Shown here piece by piece: positions 12,999 to 54,959 of a stretch of 60,026 nt of DNA; the stretch's first letter is position 1; every line of letters begins with the position of its first letter. The stretch is from a phage. Location: the sequence record PV806339.1. The stretch is one strand, 5' to 3'. Position numbers and translations under genes: made by a program. Below the pieces are notes generated by a model that worked only from the letters and a program-made list of their open reading frames with translations, did not search any database and was not told the origin of the DNA.

Positions 12999-15900
12999 CA
13001 GTAAAGACGTCGAGCTACGAATCCGGGCGAGGGACTACAGCCAGAAGCCCCTAAAGGCTGTGACCAGTGCCATCGAGCAGATGGCGAAGGCGCAGGACGA
13101 ACAGCGTAAAGCAGCCGAGCGCGGTGAAGTCTCGACGCGTGATCTGGAAGCCGCATACAAAAAGCTGGAAAGTGCCGGGAACCAACTGCTTAAACTCAAC
13201 TCGCTGATCGAGGTGTTCAAACGGCAGAATCAGGCCATGACGGAGGCGACGGCCAAGACCGAAGGACTCCGCCAGAAACAGGCCGATCTCCAGAAGACCT
13301 ACGATTCCACCGAGAAGGTTACGCAGAAACAGGAACGGGCGCTGGCCCGGGTAACACGTCAGGTTGAAGCCGCAACCCGCGCGGAAGCGAATCAGGCCGA
13401 GCGCGTGTCCCGGGCTACCCGCGACCTCGAACGATACGGGATCGAGACGTCGAAAGTTGGGGCGGCCCAAGCGGGTATCGTCACCAGCGTCGCGCAGGTC
13501 AACCGTGTCCTCGAACGTCAGGACGAAATCATTTCAACGTCTGCCGCTGCGGCCGCACAAGCGAAGGTCATTCGTGGATTGCAGCAGCAGGCTGATCAGG
13601 CGATGGCGACGGCGCGCGGGTACCAAACCCTCGGCCGCGTGGTGCAGCAGGCAACCGGGCAACTCGGGCCGCTTGGCACGCAGATCCAGACTATCGTCAG
13701 CCCGGCAGAAGCGGCGCGCCGCACGCTGTCCGGCCTTGAGAATCAGGTACACGGCGTTACTACCGAACTGGCCCGTAACAGTAAGGAAGTGGAAAACGTC
13801 GCTCAGAAAGTCCGAATGCTCAACGAGGCGAATAAAACCGTCTCGGCGCTGGCGCAGCAAATCGACCTGTACCGCCAGCAGGTGTCAACCCTTCGGAACG
13901 CCCGCACTGAATACCAACAAGCGCGACAAGACGTCATCAAGTTAGCACAGCAGATGCGCACCGCGACAACTGATACGGGCGCTTTAGGTATTCAGATGCA
14001 GGCCGCCCAACAACGGCTTTCCGCAGCCGCGACGGCCATGCGAAACACGGCCACGGCCGCCCGGTCTACCCAAGCCGCGTTACGAGCGGCGCAGGTGGAC
14101 ACGCGTAACCTGTCCGATGCGGAAGCCCGGCTGATCTCCACCAGCCAACAATCGGCCGCAGCGCTTAACACGCTGTCCACCGCGACGAACCGGAACAGCC
14201 AAGCGGCGCGCGACGGCTCGAAGGCGTGGTCACTGTTCCGAGACGAGGGCCGTACCACGCTGTCCTTCCTGCAACGTATTCGCGGTGAAGTGCTGGCGCT
14301 GACGACCACTTACATCGGTTTTCAGGGGGCTATCAATCTGGCGGGAGGCGCGATCGACGCGTACAAGAACCGTCAGCAGGCGATGGTCAAAATTGCGAAC
14401 GTGGTGGGTAACAGCCAAGCGGCCATCAACAAAGAGTGGGAATACATGGTCGGTCTGGCGAATACGCTCGGGATCGACATCACCACCCTGTCACAGTCGT
14501 ACACGAAATTCGCCGTATCCGCGAAGGCGGTCGGCCTGTCATTGCAGGACTCAAAGTTCATCTTCGAAAGCGTAGCGAAAGCGGGCCGCGTCTTCCACCT
14601 GTCACAAGATGACATGGAAGGCGTATTCCGCGCGCTGGAACAGATGTTGTCGAAGGGTCAGGTGTATGCGGAAGAACTGCGCGGCCAATTGGGTGAACGT
14701 CTCCCGGCGGCCTTCGCGCTGTTCGCAAAAGGCATGGACATGACCACCGCCGAACTGATGAAGGCGATGGAAAACGGGGAAGTCACTGGCGAGGCGGTTA
14801 TCAACTTCGCCCGCGAGCAGGCCAAAGCGATTGACGCTCAACTCGCCACGGCGCAGAAAGGTGTCGATGCGATGGAAGCGCGCGCCCGCAACGCCATGAA
14901 CGCGTTTCAACTGGCATTGGCCGACGCAGGCTTTATCGAAGCGTACGTGCAGATGCTTAACAAGATCACCGACTTCCTGAACAGCGAGGATGGTCGGGCG
15001 GCCGCCGTTAAACTCGGCGAGGCGTTCGGCACGTTGGCCGACGCTGTGACGTGGTGCATCGAGAACGTGGACACGCTGATCACCGCGTTAAGCGTTCTGG
15101 CCGGGCTGAAAGTGGTGCAGTTCATCGGCGGCATGATTTCGGGCCTTAAAAACCTGCTGCCGCTGTTCAGCACGCTCGGTAAAATCGGCGATGGCATTAT
15201 CACGATGCTAGAAGGTGTCGCGGCCAGAATGATTGCGGCACAAGGGGCCGTAGGGCTTCTCGGCATCGCGTTGAAAGGGCTGACCCGGTTAATCCCGATT
15301 GTCGGATGGGCGCTGCTGGCGTACGACATCGGTGCCATCATGTACGACCAGTCGCAGACCTTCCGCGAGGCGGTCAACGCGATCATCCGGGACTTCAAGA
15401 ACCTCGGGAATCAACTGGCAGCCGTCGTCGAGTCCATCCCGGCGCTGCTGTACGATCTGGCGGTATCGGTGCTGCGCCCTATTACCACGATGTTCGCCGA
15501 CACCACGCAGGCGATTATTAAGTGGATCGCGGATGTCCTGAAACTGATCCCGGGCGTTGGTCAAGGGCTGTCCGAGTGGGCCATGTCCATTGGCGACGAC
15601 CTGACGAAAGAGCAGCGTGGCTTCCTCGAATCGACTGGCCGCATTTGGGACAACGTCAATAAACAGTGGGTGAAACTGAACGACGAAATGGTCGCGAAGA
15701 ACGCCGATGCGACTGACAAGATTCGCGGGCAGGTCAACCAACTGGCCGCCGACATGGCCGCTATCACGAAGGGCGAAGGCTTCCAGTTCACCCAAGACCC
15801 GGGAACAGGCGTCACGAAGCGCAGCCGCGAGATCGCGGGCCTGACGAAAGAGTTAGGCAAGATGGAAGAGGCGGCCAAGAAGGCGGACGTTGCGTCGCGT

Positions 15901-36305: not shown

Positions 36306-36335
36306 AATATAGGTTATACACGCGACGTATGTCAA
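36306..36335 (-). promoter_or_regulatory. sigma70-type early promoter, leftward operon 4
   Basis: Minus strand reads TTGACA-TACGTCGCGTGTATAACC-TATATT (18-bp spacer). The spacer carries the conserved box. Confidence 0.7.
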
Positions 36336-38361: not shown

Positions 38362-38390
38362 ATATTAATTACACATGTCGCGTGTGTCAA
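38362..38390 (-). promoter_or_regulatory. sigma70-type early promoter, leftward operon 3
   Basis: Minus strand reads TTGACA-CACGCGACATGTGTAAT-TAATAT (17-bp spacer). The box is present in inverted orientation. Confidence 0.75.
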
Positions 38391-41553: not shown

Positions 41554-41582
41554 AATATTAGTCGTACACGCGACGTACGTCA
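41554..41582 (-). promoter_or_regulatory. sigma70-type early promoter, leftward operon 2
   Basis: Minus strand reads TTGACG-TACGTCGCGTGTACGAC-TAATAT (17-bp spacer) with the conserved box. Confidence 0.75.
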
Positions 41583-41603
41583 ATAACTTTATTCGGGGCA
41601 AAA

Positions 41604-44869: not shown

Positions 44870-44898
44870 ACAATAGTTCTACACGCGACGTATGTCAA
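44870..44898 (-). promoter_or_regulatory. sigma70-type early promoter, leftward operon 1
   Basis: Minus strand reads TTGACA-TACGTCGCGTGTAGAAC-TATTGT (17-bp spacer) with the conserved box. Confidence 0.7.
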
Positions 44899-45493: not shown

Positions 45494-45523
45494 TTGACGC
45501 ACGCCGCGTATATCATTTACATT
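45494..45523 (+). promoter_or_regulatory. sigma70-type promoter, rightward cassette 1
   Basis: TTGACG-CACGCCGCGTATATCATT-TACATT, followed by the leader hairpin CCC-TTCG-GGG. About 65 bp are shared with the promoter at 48128. Confidence 0.65.
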
Positions 45524-45587
45524 TAAATTCCCTTCGGGGGACGGGGCAAAAAGTCCCGGCGATAAACTAACTTTATGAGGTGTCACG

Positions 45588-47875: not shown

Positions 47876-48093
47876 ATAAAACCGGATTTTCGGGGAACGC
47901 CGCAAGGGCCGCGATCAAGTTTACCGCGTGCGGCGCGATCGTGGCGTTTATCGGGGCGGCGGTTATTTTCGGCGACAACGTCGGGCCATATAAAGTGTTT
48001 TTGTATACCGTCGCCGGGGGCGTATGTGTGCGCCTGATTTGGCCGACTCAAGACGAGGGCGACGCGCTTTTAAAACGGGATGACGGCCCGTAA
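47872..48093 (+). CDS. small two-TMD membrane protein
   Basis: 73 aa started at the ATGA overlap. Hydrophobic segments ACGAIVAFIGAAVIF and FLYTVAGGVCVRLIW. Confidence 0.6.
   Translation: MNKTGFSGNAARAAIKFTACGAIVAFIGAAVIFGDNVGPYKVFLYTVAGGVCVRLIWPTQDEGDALLKRDDGP
47878..47904 (+). repeat. 27-nt repeat, copy A (coding, 5' end of the membrane-protein gene)
   Basis: aaaaccggattttcggggaacgccgca matches 50543-50569 at 26 of 27 positions. Confidence 0.9.
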
Positions 48094-48127: not shown

Positions 48128-48157
48128 TTGACGCACGCCGCGTATATCATCTATTAT
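48128..48157 (+). promoter_or_regulatory. sigma70-type promoter, rightward cassette 2
   Basis: TTGACG-CACGCCGCGTATATCATC-TATTAT (18-bp spacer), followed by the same CCC-TTCG-GGG leader. Confidence 0.7.
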
Positions 48158-48218
48158 TAAATTCCCTTCGGGGGCCGGGGGCAATGGGGCCGACGGTTAT
48201 CAAAACAGGTACATAAAA

Positions 48219-49898: not shown

Positions 49899-50036
49899 AT
49901 GGCGGGCTTATGGTTTTTAGTGGTGACGATGTGCGGCGCGGTTGGCGCTGATAATATGGCGGCCGATTGTCACGATTATGTTATTGACGCGGGGATCTCT
50001 TATGACGATTGCCGCGCGGCCGTGGCGAGGCGGTAG
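49899..50036 (+). CDS. possible 45-aa protein with a hydrophobic N-terminus (not in the supplied ORF track)
   Basis: ATG at 49899 preceded by GAGG, TAG stop at 50034-50036. It fills the gap between flanking genes. Translation: MAGLWFLVVTMCGAVGADN... Confidence 0.4.
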   Translation: MAGLWFLVVTMCGAVGADNMAADCHDYVIDAGISYDDCRAAVARR

Positions 50037-50048
50037 AAGGGGGCAACG

Positions 50049-50300
50049 ATGAATAAAGGCCAATACCGCGCCGCGCGTCGCCTGATACGTGATAACGGGA
50101 TCTATGCGTTGCGATGGCTGGACGATGACACCGCGCCGATTATGGACGTGTTAGCAAGCCAGCCGGATGACCAGTTAGAGACAAGGGCGGCGATCGTGGC
50201 GTACAGCGCCCGCGCCGGGCTTGCGTGCAATGTGCGTAAAACGGCGTCACTTGACCTTTTAGCGCGGTACCATGACCGCAAGGCGGCCGCGAATGGATAA
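50049..50300 (+). CDS. hypothetical protein
   Basis: 83 aa. AAGGGGG SD. Confidence 0.7.
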   Translation: MNKGQYRAARRLIRDNGIYALRWLDDDTAPIMDVLASQPDDQLETRAAIVAYSARAGLACNVRKTASLDLLARYHDRKAAANG

Positions 50301-50544
50301 GGCGCAACGCTTAACGGCCGCACGTATGGCGGCGGATCGGTATGCCGGGATCGCAAGGGCAAAAGGTTTTAAGCGTCATATTGATGGCGTGACGTTTACC
50401 CGGGCCGATGCGGATCTAACGTGGGATGACCGGGCGCGCGCTTTCCGTGTGACGCTGTACAAAATGGACGGGGCCGCGCGTCTTGCCGTTGCCACTGTAC
50501 GCGCTAACGCGATGCTTAACGTGCTGTTAAAAGCGTTTATCTAA
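50293..50544 (+). CDS. hypothetical protein
   Basis: 83 aa from the ATG 50293, with an 8-nt overlap with the upstream gene (the ORF opens at 50272). Confidence 0.65.
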   Translation: MDKAQRLTAARMAADRYAGIARAKGFKRHIDGVTFTRADADLTWDDRARAFRVTLYKMDGAARLAVATVRANAMLNVLLKAFI

Positions 50545-50569
50545 AACCGAATTTTCGGGGAACGCCGCA
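50543..50569 (+). repeat. 27-nt repeat, copy B (non-coding remnant)
   Basis: aaaaccgaattttcggggaacgccgca lies immediately after the last gene of cassette 2. There is no start codon, and a 1-nt indel lies just upstream of the repeat relative to copy A. Confidence 0.9.
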
Positions 50570-50610
50570 CGATCCCTTTTAACCTGTTTTGACATATTCC
50601 CCATGTATCA

Positions 50611-50640
50611 AAGGCCGCCTATCCGGGCGGCTTTTTTATT
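50611..50640 (+). terminator. rho-independent terminator ending rightward cassette 2
   Basis: GCCGCC-tatccg-GGCGGC followed by TTTTTTATT. Confidence 0.9.
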
Positions 50641-50647
50641 GCCTTTC

Positions 50648-50846
50648 TGATATACGCGGCGTGCGTTGGTGTGCCGTGTATCGGGCCTATGGTGCGCCGC
50701 TGTAGTTGATATACGCGGCGTGCGTATGGCGGCCCGTCCTGCTTTCTTCCTTCCTGATATACACGACGTGCATCAATGCGGCCTTATGTGCGCGCTATGC
50801 CGTATGGCGGCCCGCTATGGTGCTGCATGATATACGCGGCGTGCGT
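50648..50846 (+). repeat. four promoterless copies of the early-promoter spacer box
   Basis: TGATATACGCGGCGTGCGT at 50648-50666, 50707-50725 and 50828-50846, plus the variant TGATATACACGACGTGCAT at 50755-50773. No usable -10/-35 pair accompanies them. Confidence 0.9.
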
Positions 50847-51083
50847 TGGTGTGCGGCTGTATATGGCTATCTATTCCCCTTTCTATGGTATCCCCTGCTA
50901 TATGGTGTGACGGGGCGTTATTGTATGCCCTTATTTCGGCCGCTATGGGGGCTAGGCGGGGCGATCGTGGTGTAAGGTATGCCTACCTATTACGATCTAT
51001 CTTGCGAGGCGTGGCGGGCGGCTGAGAAAGAATTACGGTCACGATTTCAAAAAGGTACTTACCCGCCAGTCGGTCGGCCCGGG

Positions 51084-51095
51084 GGTGCGCAGAGC
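51084..51095 (+). other. candidate cohesive-end (cosN) dodecamer GGTGCGCAGAGC
   Basis: A GC-rich dodecamer containing the TGCGCA palindrome, in the largest non-coding region. It matches my unverified recollection of the 12-nt 5' cohesive end of chi-like phages. Confidence 0.3.
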
Positions 51096-51307
51096 CGCTT
51101 TCTCGGAAAATGGGCCGGATCTGCCATAGCCCCGCTTTGCGAAATCAATAACTTAGCCGAAAAACCGAATTTCTCCCGTAGGGAGTCTCCAAATCGCGGT
51201 GGTGACGGGGGTGCGGGCGGAACGGCGCTTTAGCCCCGCAATCGGTTGATTGTATTACTGTTTTACCCGGTGGGCGGGTGCTGACCAAGTCCACGGCAGC
51301 AGTATCA

Positions 51308-51587
51308 GGTTACAAGTTACAGACGGGTTACAAGTTTTTCGCTTTGTAACCTCTAACTATCTCACTGTTTTTACTGCGTTTTTCTCCTATAAAGTTACAA
51401 GTTACAAATAAAGTATAGTAATAGTCCAGAAATAGAGAAAACGAGGTAAAAATGTGAATTTTATATAGGGGGGAATTTTACCCGGGCGCTAAACCACTTC
51501 GGTTTGTAACCTGAATACCCGGATCGCTGAGAGCCGCGCCACCACTGGCCCGAACATGGTTACAAACGGCGAAAATGGTATGTAACC
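51308..51587 (+). repeat. array of GGTTACA(A/T) half-sites in direct and inverted arrangement
   Basis: ggttacaagttacag 51308-51322; GGTTACAAG-n7-CTTTGTAACC 51326-51351; gttacaagttacaaa 51394-51408; ggtttgtaacc 51501-51511; GGTTACAAAC-n9-GGTATGTAACC 51558-51587. Confidence 0.85.
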
Positions 51588-51620
51588 TTTTGCCCGTTTT
51601 GGCCGTTTTCTTGCGTTTCA

Positions 51621-51636
51621 ATAACAAATTTGTTAT
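51621..51636 (+). promoter_or_regulatory. perfect 16-bp palindrome ATAACAAATTTGTTAT (operator candidate)
   Basis: Lies just upstream of the putative promoter of the XRE gene. A further half-site TTTGTTAT lies at 51667-51674, just after the -10 element. Confidence 0.6.
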
Positions 51637-51654
51637 ACGTCTTGCCCCGAATCC

Positions 51655-51663
51655 TGCTATAAT
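51655..51663 (+). promoter_or_regulatory. extended -10 promoter TGcTATAAT for the XRE-family gene
   Basis: TGCTATAAT lies 34 nt upstream of the ATG at 51697. The -35 element is poor. Confidence 0.45.
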
Positions 51664-51696
51664 TTATTTGTTATAAACAGCAAAAATAGGTCAAAA

Positions 51697-51984
51697 ATGC
51701 AGCACGATGAATGCCGTGAAACGTTGATGGATTTCAAACGACAATTACAGACACATTTGAAGGCGATTTTACGTCGTCAGGGGGTCACACAGAGCGCGCT
51801 TGCGACGATGATCGGCGTACACCAGTCAAGATTAAGTTTCATGCTTAACAGTGACGCAGACAGAGTTTCGATCGATAAACTCATTGAAGCGATAGTGAAA
51901 CTGGACGGCGTGTTTATGGTGAAAATCGGAGATCAAACAGACATAAATCGAGTGCGGTACAAGGAGTGCGAAGACAACGTTTGA
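51697..51984 (+). CDS. XRE-family HTH DNA-binding protein
   Basis: 95 aa. HTH segment VTQSALATMIGVHQSRLSFMLN. Confidence 0.75.
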   Translation: MQHDECRETLMDFKRQLQTHLKAILRRQGVTQSALATMIGVHQSRLSFMLNSDADRVSIDKLIEAIVKLDGVFMVKIGDQTDINRVRYKECEDNV

Positions 51985-51990
51985 CAGACA

Positions 51991-52021
51991 AAAATAAGGC
52001 CGGATTTCCCGGCCTTTTTAT
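51991..52021. terminator. bidirectional terminator between convergent genes
   Basis: AAGGCCGG-atttc-CCGGCCTT, flanked by an A-run upstream and a T-run downstream. Confidence 0.85.
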
Positions 52022-52024
52022 CGA

Positions 52025-54610
52025 CTAAACTTCGTCTTCATCGTCAAACGGGTCTGGCTTTTTGCCGACCAGTTTTTCGACTTCTGCGTCATGCCGTTTT
52101 AACGTAGTCTGCACCCACGACGAGTTAAGTTTCCCCGCGTCGTCGAATGCCCCTTTGACCCGCTTCCTGACATAAACGCGGCCAGATTCGCCGCCAAATT
52201 TGACCACGCCGCCCGGCTTGAAGCCCAATTCCATAAGCATGTTTTTCAGGCGGTTCGTCTTCGGCATTTCCACGTCTGTCATTTCGAGGAATGCGTTTTT
52301 CAGGGACGGCACGAAGATGACGTCGCGGTGTACGCCCGGCGTCGTTCCGTCACGAAGCATTTGTGCGATTGCGCCTTCCACGCCATCGTCAGACGCGTCG
52401 GCCATGACCGCGAATGCTTCGGTGTCCTGCGGTGCGTGTCCTTTGGCATCGAAATCCTTTCCGATCTCCCAATCGAGGAACCACTTTTTGATAGCAGGTG
52501 CGTGGTTTTCGATTGCCCGGTACACGTTTTTGAAGAAGCGCGCGCGTTCAGTCTTCGACCCGTAAACCCGCTCCATGTCCAGATGATTTTCTGCCTGCGT
52601 GGACACCACCAGATAACGACGCTGGTTTTCATCGAGTGGCAATGCGTTGAAGTGGTTGGTGAACATCATTTTGCTGCTGGTGTTCACGACTTCCTTCGGC
52701 TTGCGGCCCTTTGGCTCAATCTGGAAGCGATCGTTTGTGATGAATTCCTTCTGGCGTTCCACCGCGCTGTACCGATCGCCTTTGTCGTAGATCTCTTCCA
52801 CGATTTTCAGGATGTGGCCCTCGGCCCAATCGCTGAAACGGCCATTCATCACGGTGTTTGACACATAGCCCACGTTCGACGCGCCGAGCATCCGCGACAT
52901 GATGATGCCGAGCGTCGTTTTACCAGAACCATGCGCACCACGGATCAGAAGCGAGTAGTTGATGCGTTTCGTTGGGTGCTGAATAACCCACGCCATCCAG
53001 TCCAGAACATAGCGGCGTTCCTTCTCGTTCGGGAAAAGCACGATGAAGAAGTCTTTGATGATCTCCAGCGCCTTTTTGTCGTACGGAGAAAGGTCAGTCG
53101 CGGCCTCCGGAATGGATTCAGGGTCAAAAGAGTTCAGCCACGTACGCCCACGGTCGTCAATAAAGAATTCCGGCCCGATCACCCCCTCTTTCGGCTTCCA
53201 CACAGATTCCGGCATGTCACCGTGCATCGCCGGGTAGTACATCGCGTCCCAAACGATAGGAACCGGGCGGACTACCGACGCATAGTGGACAGGCTTGAAG
53301 GCTTCTTCCTCAAACACGCATTTTTTCGCAAAAGCGACGTCGAAAGCGCCTTTTGTGATGTAATCGCCCGTGGTTTTTTCGATAAAACTGTCATTTGCCT
53401 TCGAGAAAACGAAGTTTTTCAGCCACTGCGGAGTCTCTTTTGACCCGTAATCGAAGCCCAAAAGCTCCCTTTTGTCACCAGCAGTGAGGCGGAAGTTGTT
53501 GATCCTGCGGTATGCTTCGGCCGCAATCTGGACGATGGCCTTGCGGGTAAGCCCGAAAATCTGCGCTTTTTTGAATGATTCGGCCCACGCATTCCAGTCA
53601 TTCGCCTCGGTACACTCGGCGAAAGCCTCGCGGTACTCGATGGCGCGTTCTTCCTGCTCGGCTTTCTCGATGTCCTGCACTTCTTTGATGATGGTGCCGA
53701 GCGTGATCAGTCGAGTCGAGTTGTGCGCGAAGCCCTTATCCCACTTGTATTCGAAATCACCTTCGTCGAAGTTGTGTGCCTGCATGGCCCATTCGCGGGC
53801 AATGGCCTTCGCCTCGTCCTGATCGCGGCAGGAAATTTGCAGCGCGGCCAGTACGGTGATGTAGTTCTCGTAATCTTCCGGGTTCGGGTATTTCAGGACG
53901 ATGTCGCGCAGTTCATCGTACGTGCCGTCCCACTTTTTGACGTCAGACAGCGCGGCCCAATCGTCATCGTCTGCCGAACCGATAGACTCATAACCGTTCA
54001 TTGGCCGTTTGACCATTGTCCAGCCCAAGTCCTTCGCGTATCGGTCGAATTCGGCGGCGATCTCGCGAGCGGTATCGAGGCTGATCTCTTCGAGGTCAAG
54101 GTCGGCGGCGTTGTTCAGCGGATTCTCGCCATCAATCCAGTAATAGTCGCGCTTGGTGTCCGGGTGGATACCGTACGCAACGAACTGCTGGCCGTCGGCG
54201 AGGATTTCAACTGCATGGCGCTGGCCGAAGTCGTCTTCCCACACGCCGGATTTCACTTTGGCGAACGGGTTTTCGGTTCGGTACAGGTAGAGTTTCTTCG
54301 GCTCCCGGCCGATACGACATGGCGCTGCACCGACGTTCTCGGCGATCCAGTCTGCCATGTGCGCCACGGCGTCTTCATCGTAAACGTCGATGTCAACCGC
54401 CGGGGTGTATTTGGTCAGAATCCCGATGCCGTTATTCGTATAGCGTTTCGCCCAACGCTGGATCTGCTCCTTATCATTGATTGTTCGTTCCCAATCTTCA
54501 CCGATAGGGCGTTTGCCCGCACCCTTCTTATCGGCGTCCGGGGCGTAGATAGGTACGATGGTGTACCCATTCCCCCAAAGCGTTTCGCCGTACTCTTGCC
54601 AGTAGTTCAT
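52025..54610 (-). CDS. bifunctional primase-polymerase / P-loop helicase (prim-pol plus P4/D5-type NTPase)
   Basis: 861 aa. N-terminal prim-pol-like region (GYTIVPIY...GKRPIGEDW), Walker A GAHGSGKTTLG, Walker B-like ILKIVEE. Ends FDDEDEV. Confidence 0.85.
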   Translation of the reverse strand: MNYWQEYGETLWGNGYTIVPIYAPDADKKGAGKRPIGEDWERTINDKEQIQRWAKRYTNNGIGILTKYTPAVDIDVYDEDAVAHMADWIAENVGAAPCRIGREPKKLYLYRTENPFAKVKSGVWEDDFGQRHAVEILADGQQFVAYGIHPDTKRDYYWIDGENPLNNAADLDLEEISLDTAREIAAEFDRYAKDLGWTMVKRPMNGYESIGSADDDDWAALSDVKKWDGTYDELRDIVLKYPNPEDYENYITVLAALQISCRDQDEAKAIAREWAMQAHNFDEGDFEYKWDKGFAHNSTRLITLGTIIKEVQDIEKAEQEERAIEYREAFAECTEANDWNAWAESFKKAQIFGLTRKAIVQIAAEAYRRINNFRLTAGDKRELLGFDYGSKETPQWLKNFVFSKANDSFIEKTTGDYITKGAFDVAFAKKCVFEEEAFKPVHYASVVRPVPIVWDAMYYPAMHGDMPESVWKPKEGVIGPEFFIDDRGRTWLNSFDPESIPEAATDLSPYDKKALEIIKDFFIVLFPNEKERRYVLDWMAWVIQHPTKRINYSLLIRGAHGSGKTTLGIIMSRMLGASNVGYVSNTVMNGRFSDWAEGHILKIVEEIYDKGDRYSAVERQKEFITNDRFQIEPKGRKPKEVVNTSSKMMFTNHFNALPLDENQRRYLVVSTQAENHLDMERVYGSKTERARFFKNVYRAIENHAPAIKKWFLDWEIGKDFDAKGHAPQDTEAFAVMADASDDGVEGAIAQMLRDGTTPGVHRDVIFVPSLKNAFLEMTDVEMPKTNRLKNMLMELGFKPGGVVKFGGESGRVYVRKRVKGAFDDAGKLNSSWVQTTLKRHDAEVEKLVGKKPDPFDDEDEV

Positions 54611-54888
54611 TCAAGGATTTCCCCTGTTTCGCTGTCCGTTTTGATCCATGAAGGGTTAGTCAGCCAATGCGGACGGATGCCGCAGTGAGGGACAGCTTTG
54701 CAAACTTTTTCGGCCACGCTGCTCGTTACGTTGTTCTGCACGGCCCATAACAATGTCGGGTAACTGATCTTCGCTGCCTTCGCCAGTTCGGCCATTCTGG
54801 CGTTCGGGTCTACCTCCAAAGCCGCTTGCATCATGAGAAATTTGACCCGCATCCGGTCGTCGTTTAAAGCCCAATCTGGAAATCGCAT
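54607..54888 (-). CDS. Cro/YdaS-like HTH protein
   Basis: 93 aa. HTH-like MAELAKAAKISYPTLLWAVQN. GAGGG SD. ATGA-coupled to the primase gene. Confidence 0.65.
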   Translation of the reverse strand: MRFPDWALNDDRMRVKFLMMQAALEVDPNARMAELAKAAKISYPTLLWAVQNNVTSSVAEKVCKAVPHCGIRPHWLTNPSWIKTDSETGEILE

Positions 54889-54930: not shown

Positions 54931-54959
54931 ATATTATATCCGGGCTTGACATCTGTCAA
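54931..54959 (-). promoter_or_regulatory. sigma70-type promoter for the HTH-primase operon
   Basis: Minus strand reads TTGACA-GATGTCAAGCCCGGATA-TAATAT (17-bp spacer). The -35 element is part of the palindrome CTTGACAtcTGTCAAG. Confidence 0.7.

Follow-up and report, generated by a model that had tools for sequence, protein, structure and literature searches.

The right chromosome end of a Chi-like siphovirus carries, in non-coding DNA directly past the terminator of its early operon and 238-436 bp from the end itself, an array of four copies of a box that is also built into its early promoters. We read these copies as four promoterless auxiliary operators for a putative regulator of the early promoters, an interpretation to which we give about half of our confidence; the regulator is most likely a dimer and most likely encoded by the phage. 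The window that we analyzed (PV806339.1; 60,026 bp) is the complete, circularly permuted genome of the phage (Chivirus, Casjensviridae), and its positions 50000-52000 are 80-98% identical to 110 GenBank phage records, phage Chi among them. Chi-type right ends are found in phages recorded from Salmonella, Escherichia, Enterobacter, Klebsiella and Serratia. Chi-like phages are widely isolated and have been used against Salmonella, Klebsiella, Proteus and Providencia, and to our knowledge nothing is known about how their genes are regulated.

The box in the promoters and at the right end

The array contains three exact copies of TGATATACGCGGCGTGCGT, at 50648..50666 (box 1), 50707..50725 (box 2) and 50828..50846 (box 4), and a variant with three mismatches, TGATATACACGACGTGCAT, at 50755..50773 (box 3). 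These are the copies listed in the initial annotation, and a mismatch search recovered all of them: allowing up to 3 mismatches, the genome holds 6 matches to TGATATACGCGGCGTGCGT against 0.05 expected, a number that none of 100 shuffles reached. The same annotation had called the array boxes the reverse complement of a spacer box in the rightward promoters, and that reverse complement does occur exactly at 45497 and 48131. A 16-bp core, ACGCACGCCGCGTATA (50651-50666 in box 1, where it is invariant in 8 genomes), is identical in the two rightward promoters and three of the array copies, and the sequence shared with the -35 and spacer region is confined to those promoters and the array. Boxes 1, 2 and 4 belong to the rightward-promoter subclass, and the variant box 3, with its reverse complement TTGATGCACGTCGTGTATATCA, resembles the leftward subclass. 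The spacings between the boxes are irregular (59, 48 and 73 bp), and the dyad symmetry of the Chivirus box is only partial (TGA..ACGC-C-GCGT..TCA); the best internal dyad of the four is found in box 2 together with its flank (ATACGC-ggcgt-GCGTAT, that is, ATACGC-N5-GCGTAT). Collection scans with short motifs returned almost only chance matches, and those with the 19-mer found just three Chi-like contigs.

Both rightward early promoters are sigma70-like, and their box copies cover the end of the -35 hexamer and the spacer. On the + strand, the first (45494..45523) reads TTGACG-N18-TACATT, with its box at 45497-45515, and the second (48128..48157) reads TTGACG-N18-TATTAT, with its box at 48131-48149; the array lies 5.1 kb from the first and 2.5 kb from the second. 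A relaxed promoter census also brought out four leftward promoters, on the - strand, with a related GC-rich spacer (TTGAC[AG]-[CT]ACG[CT]CGCGTGTA): one at 44870..44898 (TTGACATACGTCGCGTGTAGAAC-TATTGT), which the promoter scan found as well, and three at 41555..41583 (TTGACGTACGTCGCGTGTACGAC-TAATAT), 38362..38390 (TTGACACACGCGACATGTGTAAT-TAATAT) and 36306..36335 (TTGACATACGTCGCGTGTATAACC-TATATT). This relationship implies that the box is the operator-like core of a six-promoter family. The array copies themselves are promoterless, as the initial annotation had maintained: on the - strand, the -35 position reads CCAACG, CATACG, TTGATG and CCAACG in the four boxes, no -10 hexamer is present, and a consensus-level scan of both strands from 50600 to 51100 found no sigma70 promoter. 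The folding of the promoter leaders was no better than that of shuffled sequences. The JS26 transcriptome shows expression of a terminal group of short genes at 5 min (PMC8754663), and by synteny with this distantly related phage, the operon next to the array would belong to the earliest expression class.

The array sits inside a stretch of ~1.15 kb that is unannotated in curated records, with the last gene of the rightward operon on one side and an HTH gene and the primase on the other. The intrinsic terminator of that operon can be read from the + strand at 50613..50638 (GGCCGCC-tatcc-GGGCGGC, then T6); it is absent from the list produced by a consensus scan of the genome, shows no variation among 8 Chivirus genomes, and has an equivalent in phages Soft and Seifer, where the hairpin carries a terminator annotation. 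The ORF at 50706-50975, which had been dismissed as a mere translation of the repeats, is indeed spurious, because 1-nt indels break its frame in relatives (L050 and ST-W23); it has no protein family match and no annotation over it in Chi, Utah (both curated records), ST-W23 or FSL SP-088. We also rejected as a gene the ORF that runs across cosN at 50979-51233 and is listed in the annotation of phage Utah: it is broken by indels or stops in relatives and matches no protein family. Two other identities for the region were discarded. Rfam returned only sub-threshold matches to known RNA families or structured RNAs, and a cluster of RecBCD Chi sites guarding the DNA end was rejected since GCTGGTGG does not occur between 49.5 and 52.5 kb, either exactly or with one mismatch.

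Interspersed with and following the boxes are eight TATGG motifs (50688..50948, + strand; at 50688, 50725, 50803, 50816, 50862, 50884, 50901 and 50944). The initial annotation had described such repeats among the boxes; they are present and strongly clustered, but they number eight rather than about ten, and only five of the eight have the strict form TATGG[CT]G. The genome has 32 copies in all, and the 8 in the array, where 0.17 would be expected, are all on the + strand, and CCATA does not occur on the + strand of the array segment. The region marked out in the initial annotation, with the boxes and the TATGG motifs, lies 125-436 bp from the right end of the virion chromosome. The top strand of this segment is G+T-rich (TATG[GC] +11/-0; GTG +17/-2), and a strand-asymmetric, G+T-rich composition is common to all genera compared. 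Among eight Chivirus genomes, 3 of the 39 TATGG columns vary, compared with a background of 21% (p = 0.07). The auxiliary-operator model gives no account of these eight motifs.

Conservation in Chivirus and related genera

We looked for selection in an alignment of eight Chivirus right ends that are 90-99.6% identical. In the 16-bp box cores, 2 of 64 columns are variable, compared with 36 of 174 in the rest of the array (Fisher p = 5e-4): the cores are 7-fold less variable than their surroundings, which, within this alignment, shows that they are under purifying selection, and the outer three bases of the box are free to vary. Four boxes are found in all nine Chivirus genomes examined, with one substitution in the fourth box of phage Chi. 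Adana and ZCSE8 carry an identical A-to-G change (TGG) in all four array boxes with the promoters unchanged, and since this change is restricted to the array, gene conversion adds to the likeness among the array copies. In FSL SP-088, box 3 has been homogenized to the consensus box; taken together with the change in Adana and ZCSE8, this implies that concerted evolution also acts within the array.

The same layout recurs beyond Chivirus: in genomes of Chivirus, Redjacvirus, Yonseivirus, Enchivirus and Jacunavirus, boxes occur within promoters and 3-4 further copies without a promoter lie at the right end, and each of the five genera has its own quasi-palindromic box, with promoter and array copies in agreement within a genome. 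In the Redjacvirus PSTCR9 (a Providencia phage), a clean 17-bp palindrome, ACAYAY-N5-RTRTGT, follows the -35 TTG of rightward and leftward promoters, and four further copies lie in the right-end non-coding region. The arms of the Redjacvirus box (ACAYAY/RTRTGT) are kept while its central 5 bp vary (TTCCC, GCCAC, GCCGC, GTGGC), and the co-variation extends to a fine scale: PibeRecoleta, also a Redjacvirus, has GTGTGT where PSTCR9 has GTATGT, and the difference is the same in promoters and array. In Yonseivirus (Klebsiella phages Soft, SAKp15, KPN N54 and Seifer), TGCAC-N9-GTGCA is found in two near-identical promoters, and (A)TTGCAC recurs four times at the right end, without promoters. The pattern of promoters and array is also found in Enc34 and JC01, each with its own variant of the box. 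The match between promoter spacer and array beats that of shuffled sequences in Chivirus, Redjacvirus and Yonseivirus (0 to 0.005) and is borderline in the Lavrentievavirus E21 (0.065). The Lavrentievavirus genomes (E21 and P-07) have different direct repeats at the array position, in E21 GGGTGTTCGGGTG[GT]GCGGT.

Relative to the promoters, the array boxes are inverted in Chivirus and mostly direct in Redjacvirus and Yonseivirus, and such flips of orientation between genera fit a symmetric site; the conserved arms with a free center point to a dimeric protein. Given a layout common to five genera, the array most likely binds the same putative early-gene regulator as the promoters do, and the co-variation shows, as far as comparison of genomes can, that the terminal array is functional. 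A comparison with relatives had been proposed in the initial annotation, and its outcome is that the layout is conserved, down to the four boxes of every Chivirus genome examined; the accompanying idea that the boxes are sites for a box-binding factor is very likely correct. The quasi-palindromic nature of the box, the four related leftward promoters, the co-varying layout in five genera and the anchoring of the array ~245 bp from cosN had all escaped that first reading.

We infer that one protein reads both the promoter boxes and the array boxes. A dimer of the regulator bound over the -35 and spacer would occlude the promoters and shut off early transcription. For the terminal cluster, three roles can be hypothesized, of which one or more may apply at the boundary between the early operon and cos: as a high-affinity sink, it might buffer repression or delay it; as a looping partner of the promoters at 2.5 and 5.1 kb, it might make their repression stronger; or, once the genome has become circular or concatemeric, the bound protein might be a roadblock to early transcription that would otherwise enter cos and the left arm.

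The cos region and the candidate readers

For Chi and Utah, a 12-nt 5′ cohesive end has been published, GGTGCGCAGAGC (PMC4342425, PMC5374247); it has a unique match in the genome, at 51084..51095 on the + strand, and the Chi record KM458633, whose ends are defined, has as its last base the equivalent of 51083. The candidate cos site that the initial annotation had placed next to the array is therefore real. The ~250 bp upstream of cosN are conserved family-wide and include the last two TATGG motifs. Within them, blastn and an eight-genus alignment delimit a conserved cos-proximal block (50900..51083, + strand; GTATGCC twice, CGCTATGGGGG.TAG.CGGGGCGATCG and AAAAAGGTACTT), which blastn also finds in Providencia, Klebsiella, Yersinia and Proteus phages. 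The last of these elements, AAAAAGGTACTT at 51049-51060, lies 24-35 bp before the nick, in a position like that of cosQ, and does not vary among eight genomes; the boxes, at 238-436 bp upstream of cosN, are outside the lambda-type cosQ range (20-35 bp). On the other, left-end (cosB-like) side of cosN lies an IHF-consensus site, AATCAATAACTTA (51143..51155, + strand; one of four consensus matches in the genome), which has the same sequence at the same offset in PSTCR9. With a second site at 51251, two of the four matches in the genome lie to the right of cosN, and the array lies to its left. Because IHF sites are on the right in lambda as well (PMC4669245), the cosB-like side is probably the right one, and by this analogy the array would be on the chromosome end that is packaged last.

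Measured from the center of box 4, the AAAAAGGTACTT motif is 212 bp away and cosN 247 bp. In six genomes from three genera, the distance from the center of the last box to AAAAAGGTACTT is 209-212 bp, and it stays within this range despite different spacings within the arrays (59/48/73, 58/82/101 and 68/68/49). The whole interval from box 4 to AAAAAGGTACTT aligns across genera, making box 4 a homologous site, and its sequence has tracked the promoter box of each genus. In these alignments, the array sits at the outer edge of the conserved cos region. If the array were purely a sink or a looping site, such strict placement beside cos would not be required, and the constant cos-side position hints at some connection to packaging or to the chromosome ends.

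We tested candidate readers of the box with natural mosaics, asking of each protein whether it follows the box type. TerS (1797-2366; DUF1441, phrog_141) keeps 75-80% identity from genus to genus, and Chi and Klebsiella phage Soft have virtually the same N-terminal DNA-binding region (residues ~10-100 are almost identical), although the boxes of the two phages are unrelated. The Cro-like HTH protein encoded at 51697-51984 fails in the opposite way, with 34-36% identity among isolates whose boxes are identical. (The gene for this protein adjoins GTTACAA repeats of its own, which evolve in concert.) For gp93 (54607-54888; Chi gp3), an Xre/Cro five-helix fold is predicted with high confidence and the protein is found family-wide, but Seifer pairs an SP-030-type gp93 recognition helix with Yonseivirus-type boxes, implying that gp93 does not set box specificity. 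The small protein gene just upstream of the array, called a "serine recombinase" in STP11, has no homologue in other genera, is split in ZCSE8 and lacks Pfam support, and the "putative DNA binding protein" of Soft is a two-TM membrane protein homologous to the product of 47887-48075.

Box type goes with the right arm of the genome. None of the right-arm proteins conserved in all box-bearing genera has a recognizable DNA-binding domain, and for the five that are kept in all of these genera, Pfam, PHROG, NCBIfam and PDB sequence searches gave no functional hint. A phage-encoded regulator is nevertheless more likely than a host factor, judging from the distribution of the sequences: unrelated boxes occur in phages of closely related hosts, and Chi-type right ends occur in phages from several enterobacterial genera. 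The analysis thus argues against TerS, the Cro-like HTH protein and gp93, the three DNA-binding candidates that were annotated or obvious, as readers of the box, and natural swaps of box type such as that in Seifer provide ready-made specificity controls.

Alternative explanations and comparison with known systems

The placement beside cos could instead mean that the array is part of an extended packaging signal, which we consider rather unlikely. A box-bound protein ~245-440 bp upstream of cosN would then serve terminase as an architectural or licensing factor, promote or block cleavage at cos or termination, and so couple early-gene shut-off to packaging. This would suit an array that always lies between terminator and cos, with a homologous box 4 at a nearly constant distance from the cosQ-like motif in three genera whose array spacings differ, as well as the family-wide conservation of ~250 bp upstream of cosN with the last two TATGG motifs inside and the G+T-rich strand asymmetry of all genera. 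However, the fixed distance is largely explicable by homologous intervening DNA with few indels, TerS is an unlikely reader since its N-terminus is conserved while the boxes are unrelated, the cosB/IHF side of a lambda-type cos would be to the right of cosN, and there is no evident reason for packaging sites to be identical to early-promoter operators. It is a longer shot that the array is a regulatory checkpoint in an unusually long cos region, where the repressor, bound at four sites kept at a fixed distance (~245 bp and beyond) from cosN, would belong to the nucleoprotein complex encountered by terminase whenever it reaches the end of a packaged chromosome. If that were true, one protein would be read for both early shut-off and the licensing or termination of packaging, a coupling undescribed for cos phages, and the protein would belong to an unrecognized DNA-binding family because every recognizable HTH candidate has been excluded. 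We see very little chance that the boxes are cosB-like recognition sites for TerS itself, with packaging starting from the right end. Several repeats adjoining cosN do resemble the R sites of lambda or the pac boxes of SPP1 (PMC4669245), and the phage has a lambda-like terminase, a gpA-type TerL and 12-nt 5′ ends; nonetheless, boxes without any similarity coexist with nearly the same TerS residues ~10-100 in Chi and Soft, two of the four IHF-consensus sites in the genome are across cosN from the array, a conserved motif fills the cosQ position on the array side, and the boxes are present in six promoters as well.

An iteron-type origin, in which an initiator would bind the array and autoregulate the early promoters (cf. 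lambda ori), strikes us as equally improbable. Four ~19-bp repeats with partial dyad symmetry, and a replication module (primase-helicase, Pol I and a gp2.5-like SSB) just across cos, would be in keeping with it, but there is neither an AT-rich unwinding element beside the array nor a skew switch (the skew being uninformative), denser iterons with an AT-rich core are found at 51300-51620, where the repeats evolve in concert independently of the box, and gp93, the regulator of the replication arm, does not track box type. Of the roles put forward in the initial annotation, titration or a sink fits all of the findings, whereas cosB and an origin are disfavored. Only slightly more probable, and still improbable, is an action of the boxes through DNA structure or a host factor: each variant has two 8-9-bp alternating purine-pyrimidine tracts, which could render both promoters and chromosome end sensitive to supercoiling, or could recruit an architectural protein of the host. 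The alternation reaches 15-17 of 21 steps in the boxes of Chi, Redjacvirus, Enc34 and Yonseivirus, compared with 10-11 in box-less and E21 promoters, and all recognizable DNA-binding candidates of the phage failed as reader. Yet it is the precise sequence, beyond the R/Y pattern, that is conserved within a genus, palindromic arms around a free center point to a dimeric protein, and Salmonella and Klebsiella, with near-identical sets of transcription factors, support phages with unrelated boxes. That the boxes are non-functional relics of duplicated promoters is scarcely credible: they do look like promoter fragments, and the concerted changes show gene conversion among the copies, but their cores are 7-fold less variable than the flanking DNA, and the position is conserved and the sequence co-varies over five genera.

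The reading as auxiliary operators is the one that we carry forward. The analysis defines the early-promoter operator of the family, which in this genome is found at six promoters and at four terminal sites. The elements of the array go unmentioned in the genome papers on Chi and Utah (PMC4342425, PMC5374247), and a non-exhaustive full-text search of the literature brought up no account of promoters, operators or terminal repeats for Chi-like phages. As concepts, stoperators, titration loci and auxiliary operators without promoters are already known; what appears to be new, from the genome comparisons, is a four-site operator cluster that is anchored beside cos, co-varies across a family of virulent-type phages and is putatively read by an unrecognized protein.

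Auxiliary promoterless operators are familiar from other phages, as in the long-range looping between lambda OL and OR and in the FL and FR flanking sites of coliphage 186. As in those systems, the extra copies in Chi are clustered, hundreds to thousands of bp from the promoters, and dyad-symmetric, suited to a dimeric HTH-type protein. Unlike them, the Chi array has four sites and lies in the terminal non-coding DNA of a virulent-type cos phage, past a terminator and anchored to cos. The E. coli datA locus is a titration locus, a cluster of DnaA boxes; by analogy, the clustered Chi sites, which have no promoter role, could buffer free regulator, and their copy number would rise on replication. 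The origin of lambda has four 19-bp dyad-symmetric iterons, and the Chi array likewise has four repeats of ~19 bp with internal dyad symmetry; it differs in being irregularly spaced, without an adjoining AT-rich region and outside an initiator gene, and in having identical sequences in promoters.

The cos site of lambda consists of cosQ, cosN and cosB, with R sites and the IHF site I1 (PMC4669245). The Chi region shares with it the 12-nt 5′ ends, a gpA-like terminase, a conserved element that precedes the nick by ~30 bp and an IHF-consensus site that follows cosN at ~60 bp, but lambda cos covers only ~200 bp, whereas the box array of Chi lies 240-440 bp upstream of cosN, on the cosQ side, with a sequence that does not track TerS. 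A last comparison is with the stoperators of mycobacteriophages L5 and D29, which are described as asymmetric, dispersed in transcribed regions, orientation-dependent and bound by one and the same repressor (PMC12266134). In both systems, part of the -35 region of an early promoter recurs in many copies that are not themselves promoters. In contrast to the stoperators so described, the Chi boxes are quasi-palindromic and clustered after a terminator in an untranscribed spot, and their orientation flips between genera.

Repeats and strand composition on either side of cos

Positions 51300-51620, between the 12-nt cohesive end (cosN, 51084-51095) and the Cro-like HTH gene and adjoining the primase gene, contain no fewer than nine GGTTACAA(G)/TTTGTAACC repeats. 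They occur on both strands and flank an AT-rich stretch at 51380-51470. In the Chivirus phage ZCSE8 the change is concerted, all copies reading GGTAACAG/CTGTTACC instead. We take these repeats to be an iteron or operator system separate from the box array (the four promoterless copies of the early-promoter box), and we regard 51300-51620 as the best candidate origin in the window. The right-terminal non-coding DNA (50641-51083) has a G+T-rich top strand, a feature common to every genus (the window, PSTCR9, PibeRecoleta, Soft, SAKp15 and E21), with GTG counts across genera of 17 to 26 on the plus strand vs 1-8 on the opposite strand.

The ORF at 50979-51233 spans cosN, would exist on joined ends only, and is annotated in that form in phage Utah. 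Its counterpart in Providencia phage PSTCR9 meets a stop after five codons, the one in L050 carries a 1-nt insertion, and the ORF has no match in Pfam or PHROG, so a real gene is improbable. Sequence conservation in this stretch more likely reflects cos DNA than coding.

gp93, promoters and leaders

The product of gp93 (Chi gp3; 54607-54888, minus strand) has no Pfam match and is confidently predicted to be a five-helix HTH protein of the Xre/Cro type (pLDDT 94.9). It belongs to a very small family, confined to Chi-like phages, for which a set of 1.84 billion proteins yields 11 cluster representatives. The promoter of the gp93-primase operon (54931-54959, minus strand; TTGACA-N17-TAATAT) lacks the box and contains the palindrome TTGACAGATGTCAA, which may be an operator for gp93 itself.

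The leaders of the two box promoters (45524-45560 and 48158-48195) are near-identical, TTAAATTCCCTTCGGGGG(A/C)CGGGG, and their predicted folding is not better than that of shuffled sequences (z = -0.4 and -0.6). Yonseivirus and E21 also have conserved promoter leaders of their own. In Soft, the annotated CDS CPTSoftv3_015 (L010:13058-13231) overlaps the first box promoter (TTGCAC... at 13161); this annotation is probably a mis-call.

Database labels and a mosaic phage

For STP11 and SEP13, the database entries give the product of the final early-operon gene (50272-50544; STP11 counterpart in OP535471, L267:574-825) the label "serine recombinase". At 83-90 aa the product is far too short for such an enzyme, and Pfam gives the label no support; lysogeny claims for these Chi-like phages that rest on it look unfounded. 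Four GenBank records have names that imply Gram-positive hosts: OR848842 and OR847083 (Listeria phage), OR844960 (Enterococcus phage) and GU169904 (Staphylococcus phage SA1). They include DNA or genes 86-97% identical to those of Chi-like phages; contamination or chimeric assembly is the probable explanation.

Klebsiella phage Seifer (MH817999; L014 and L270) is a mosaic: its left arm is Chivirus-like, with a primase 82% and a gp93 84% identical to those of the window, and its right arm, with the early operons and boxes, is Yonseivirus-like. Seifer provides a useful natural specificity swap.
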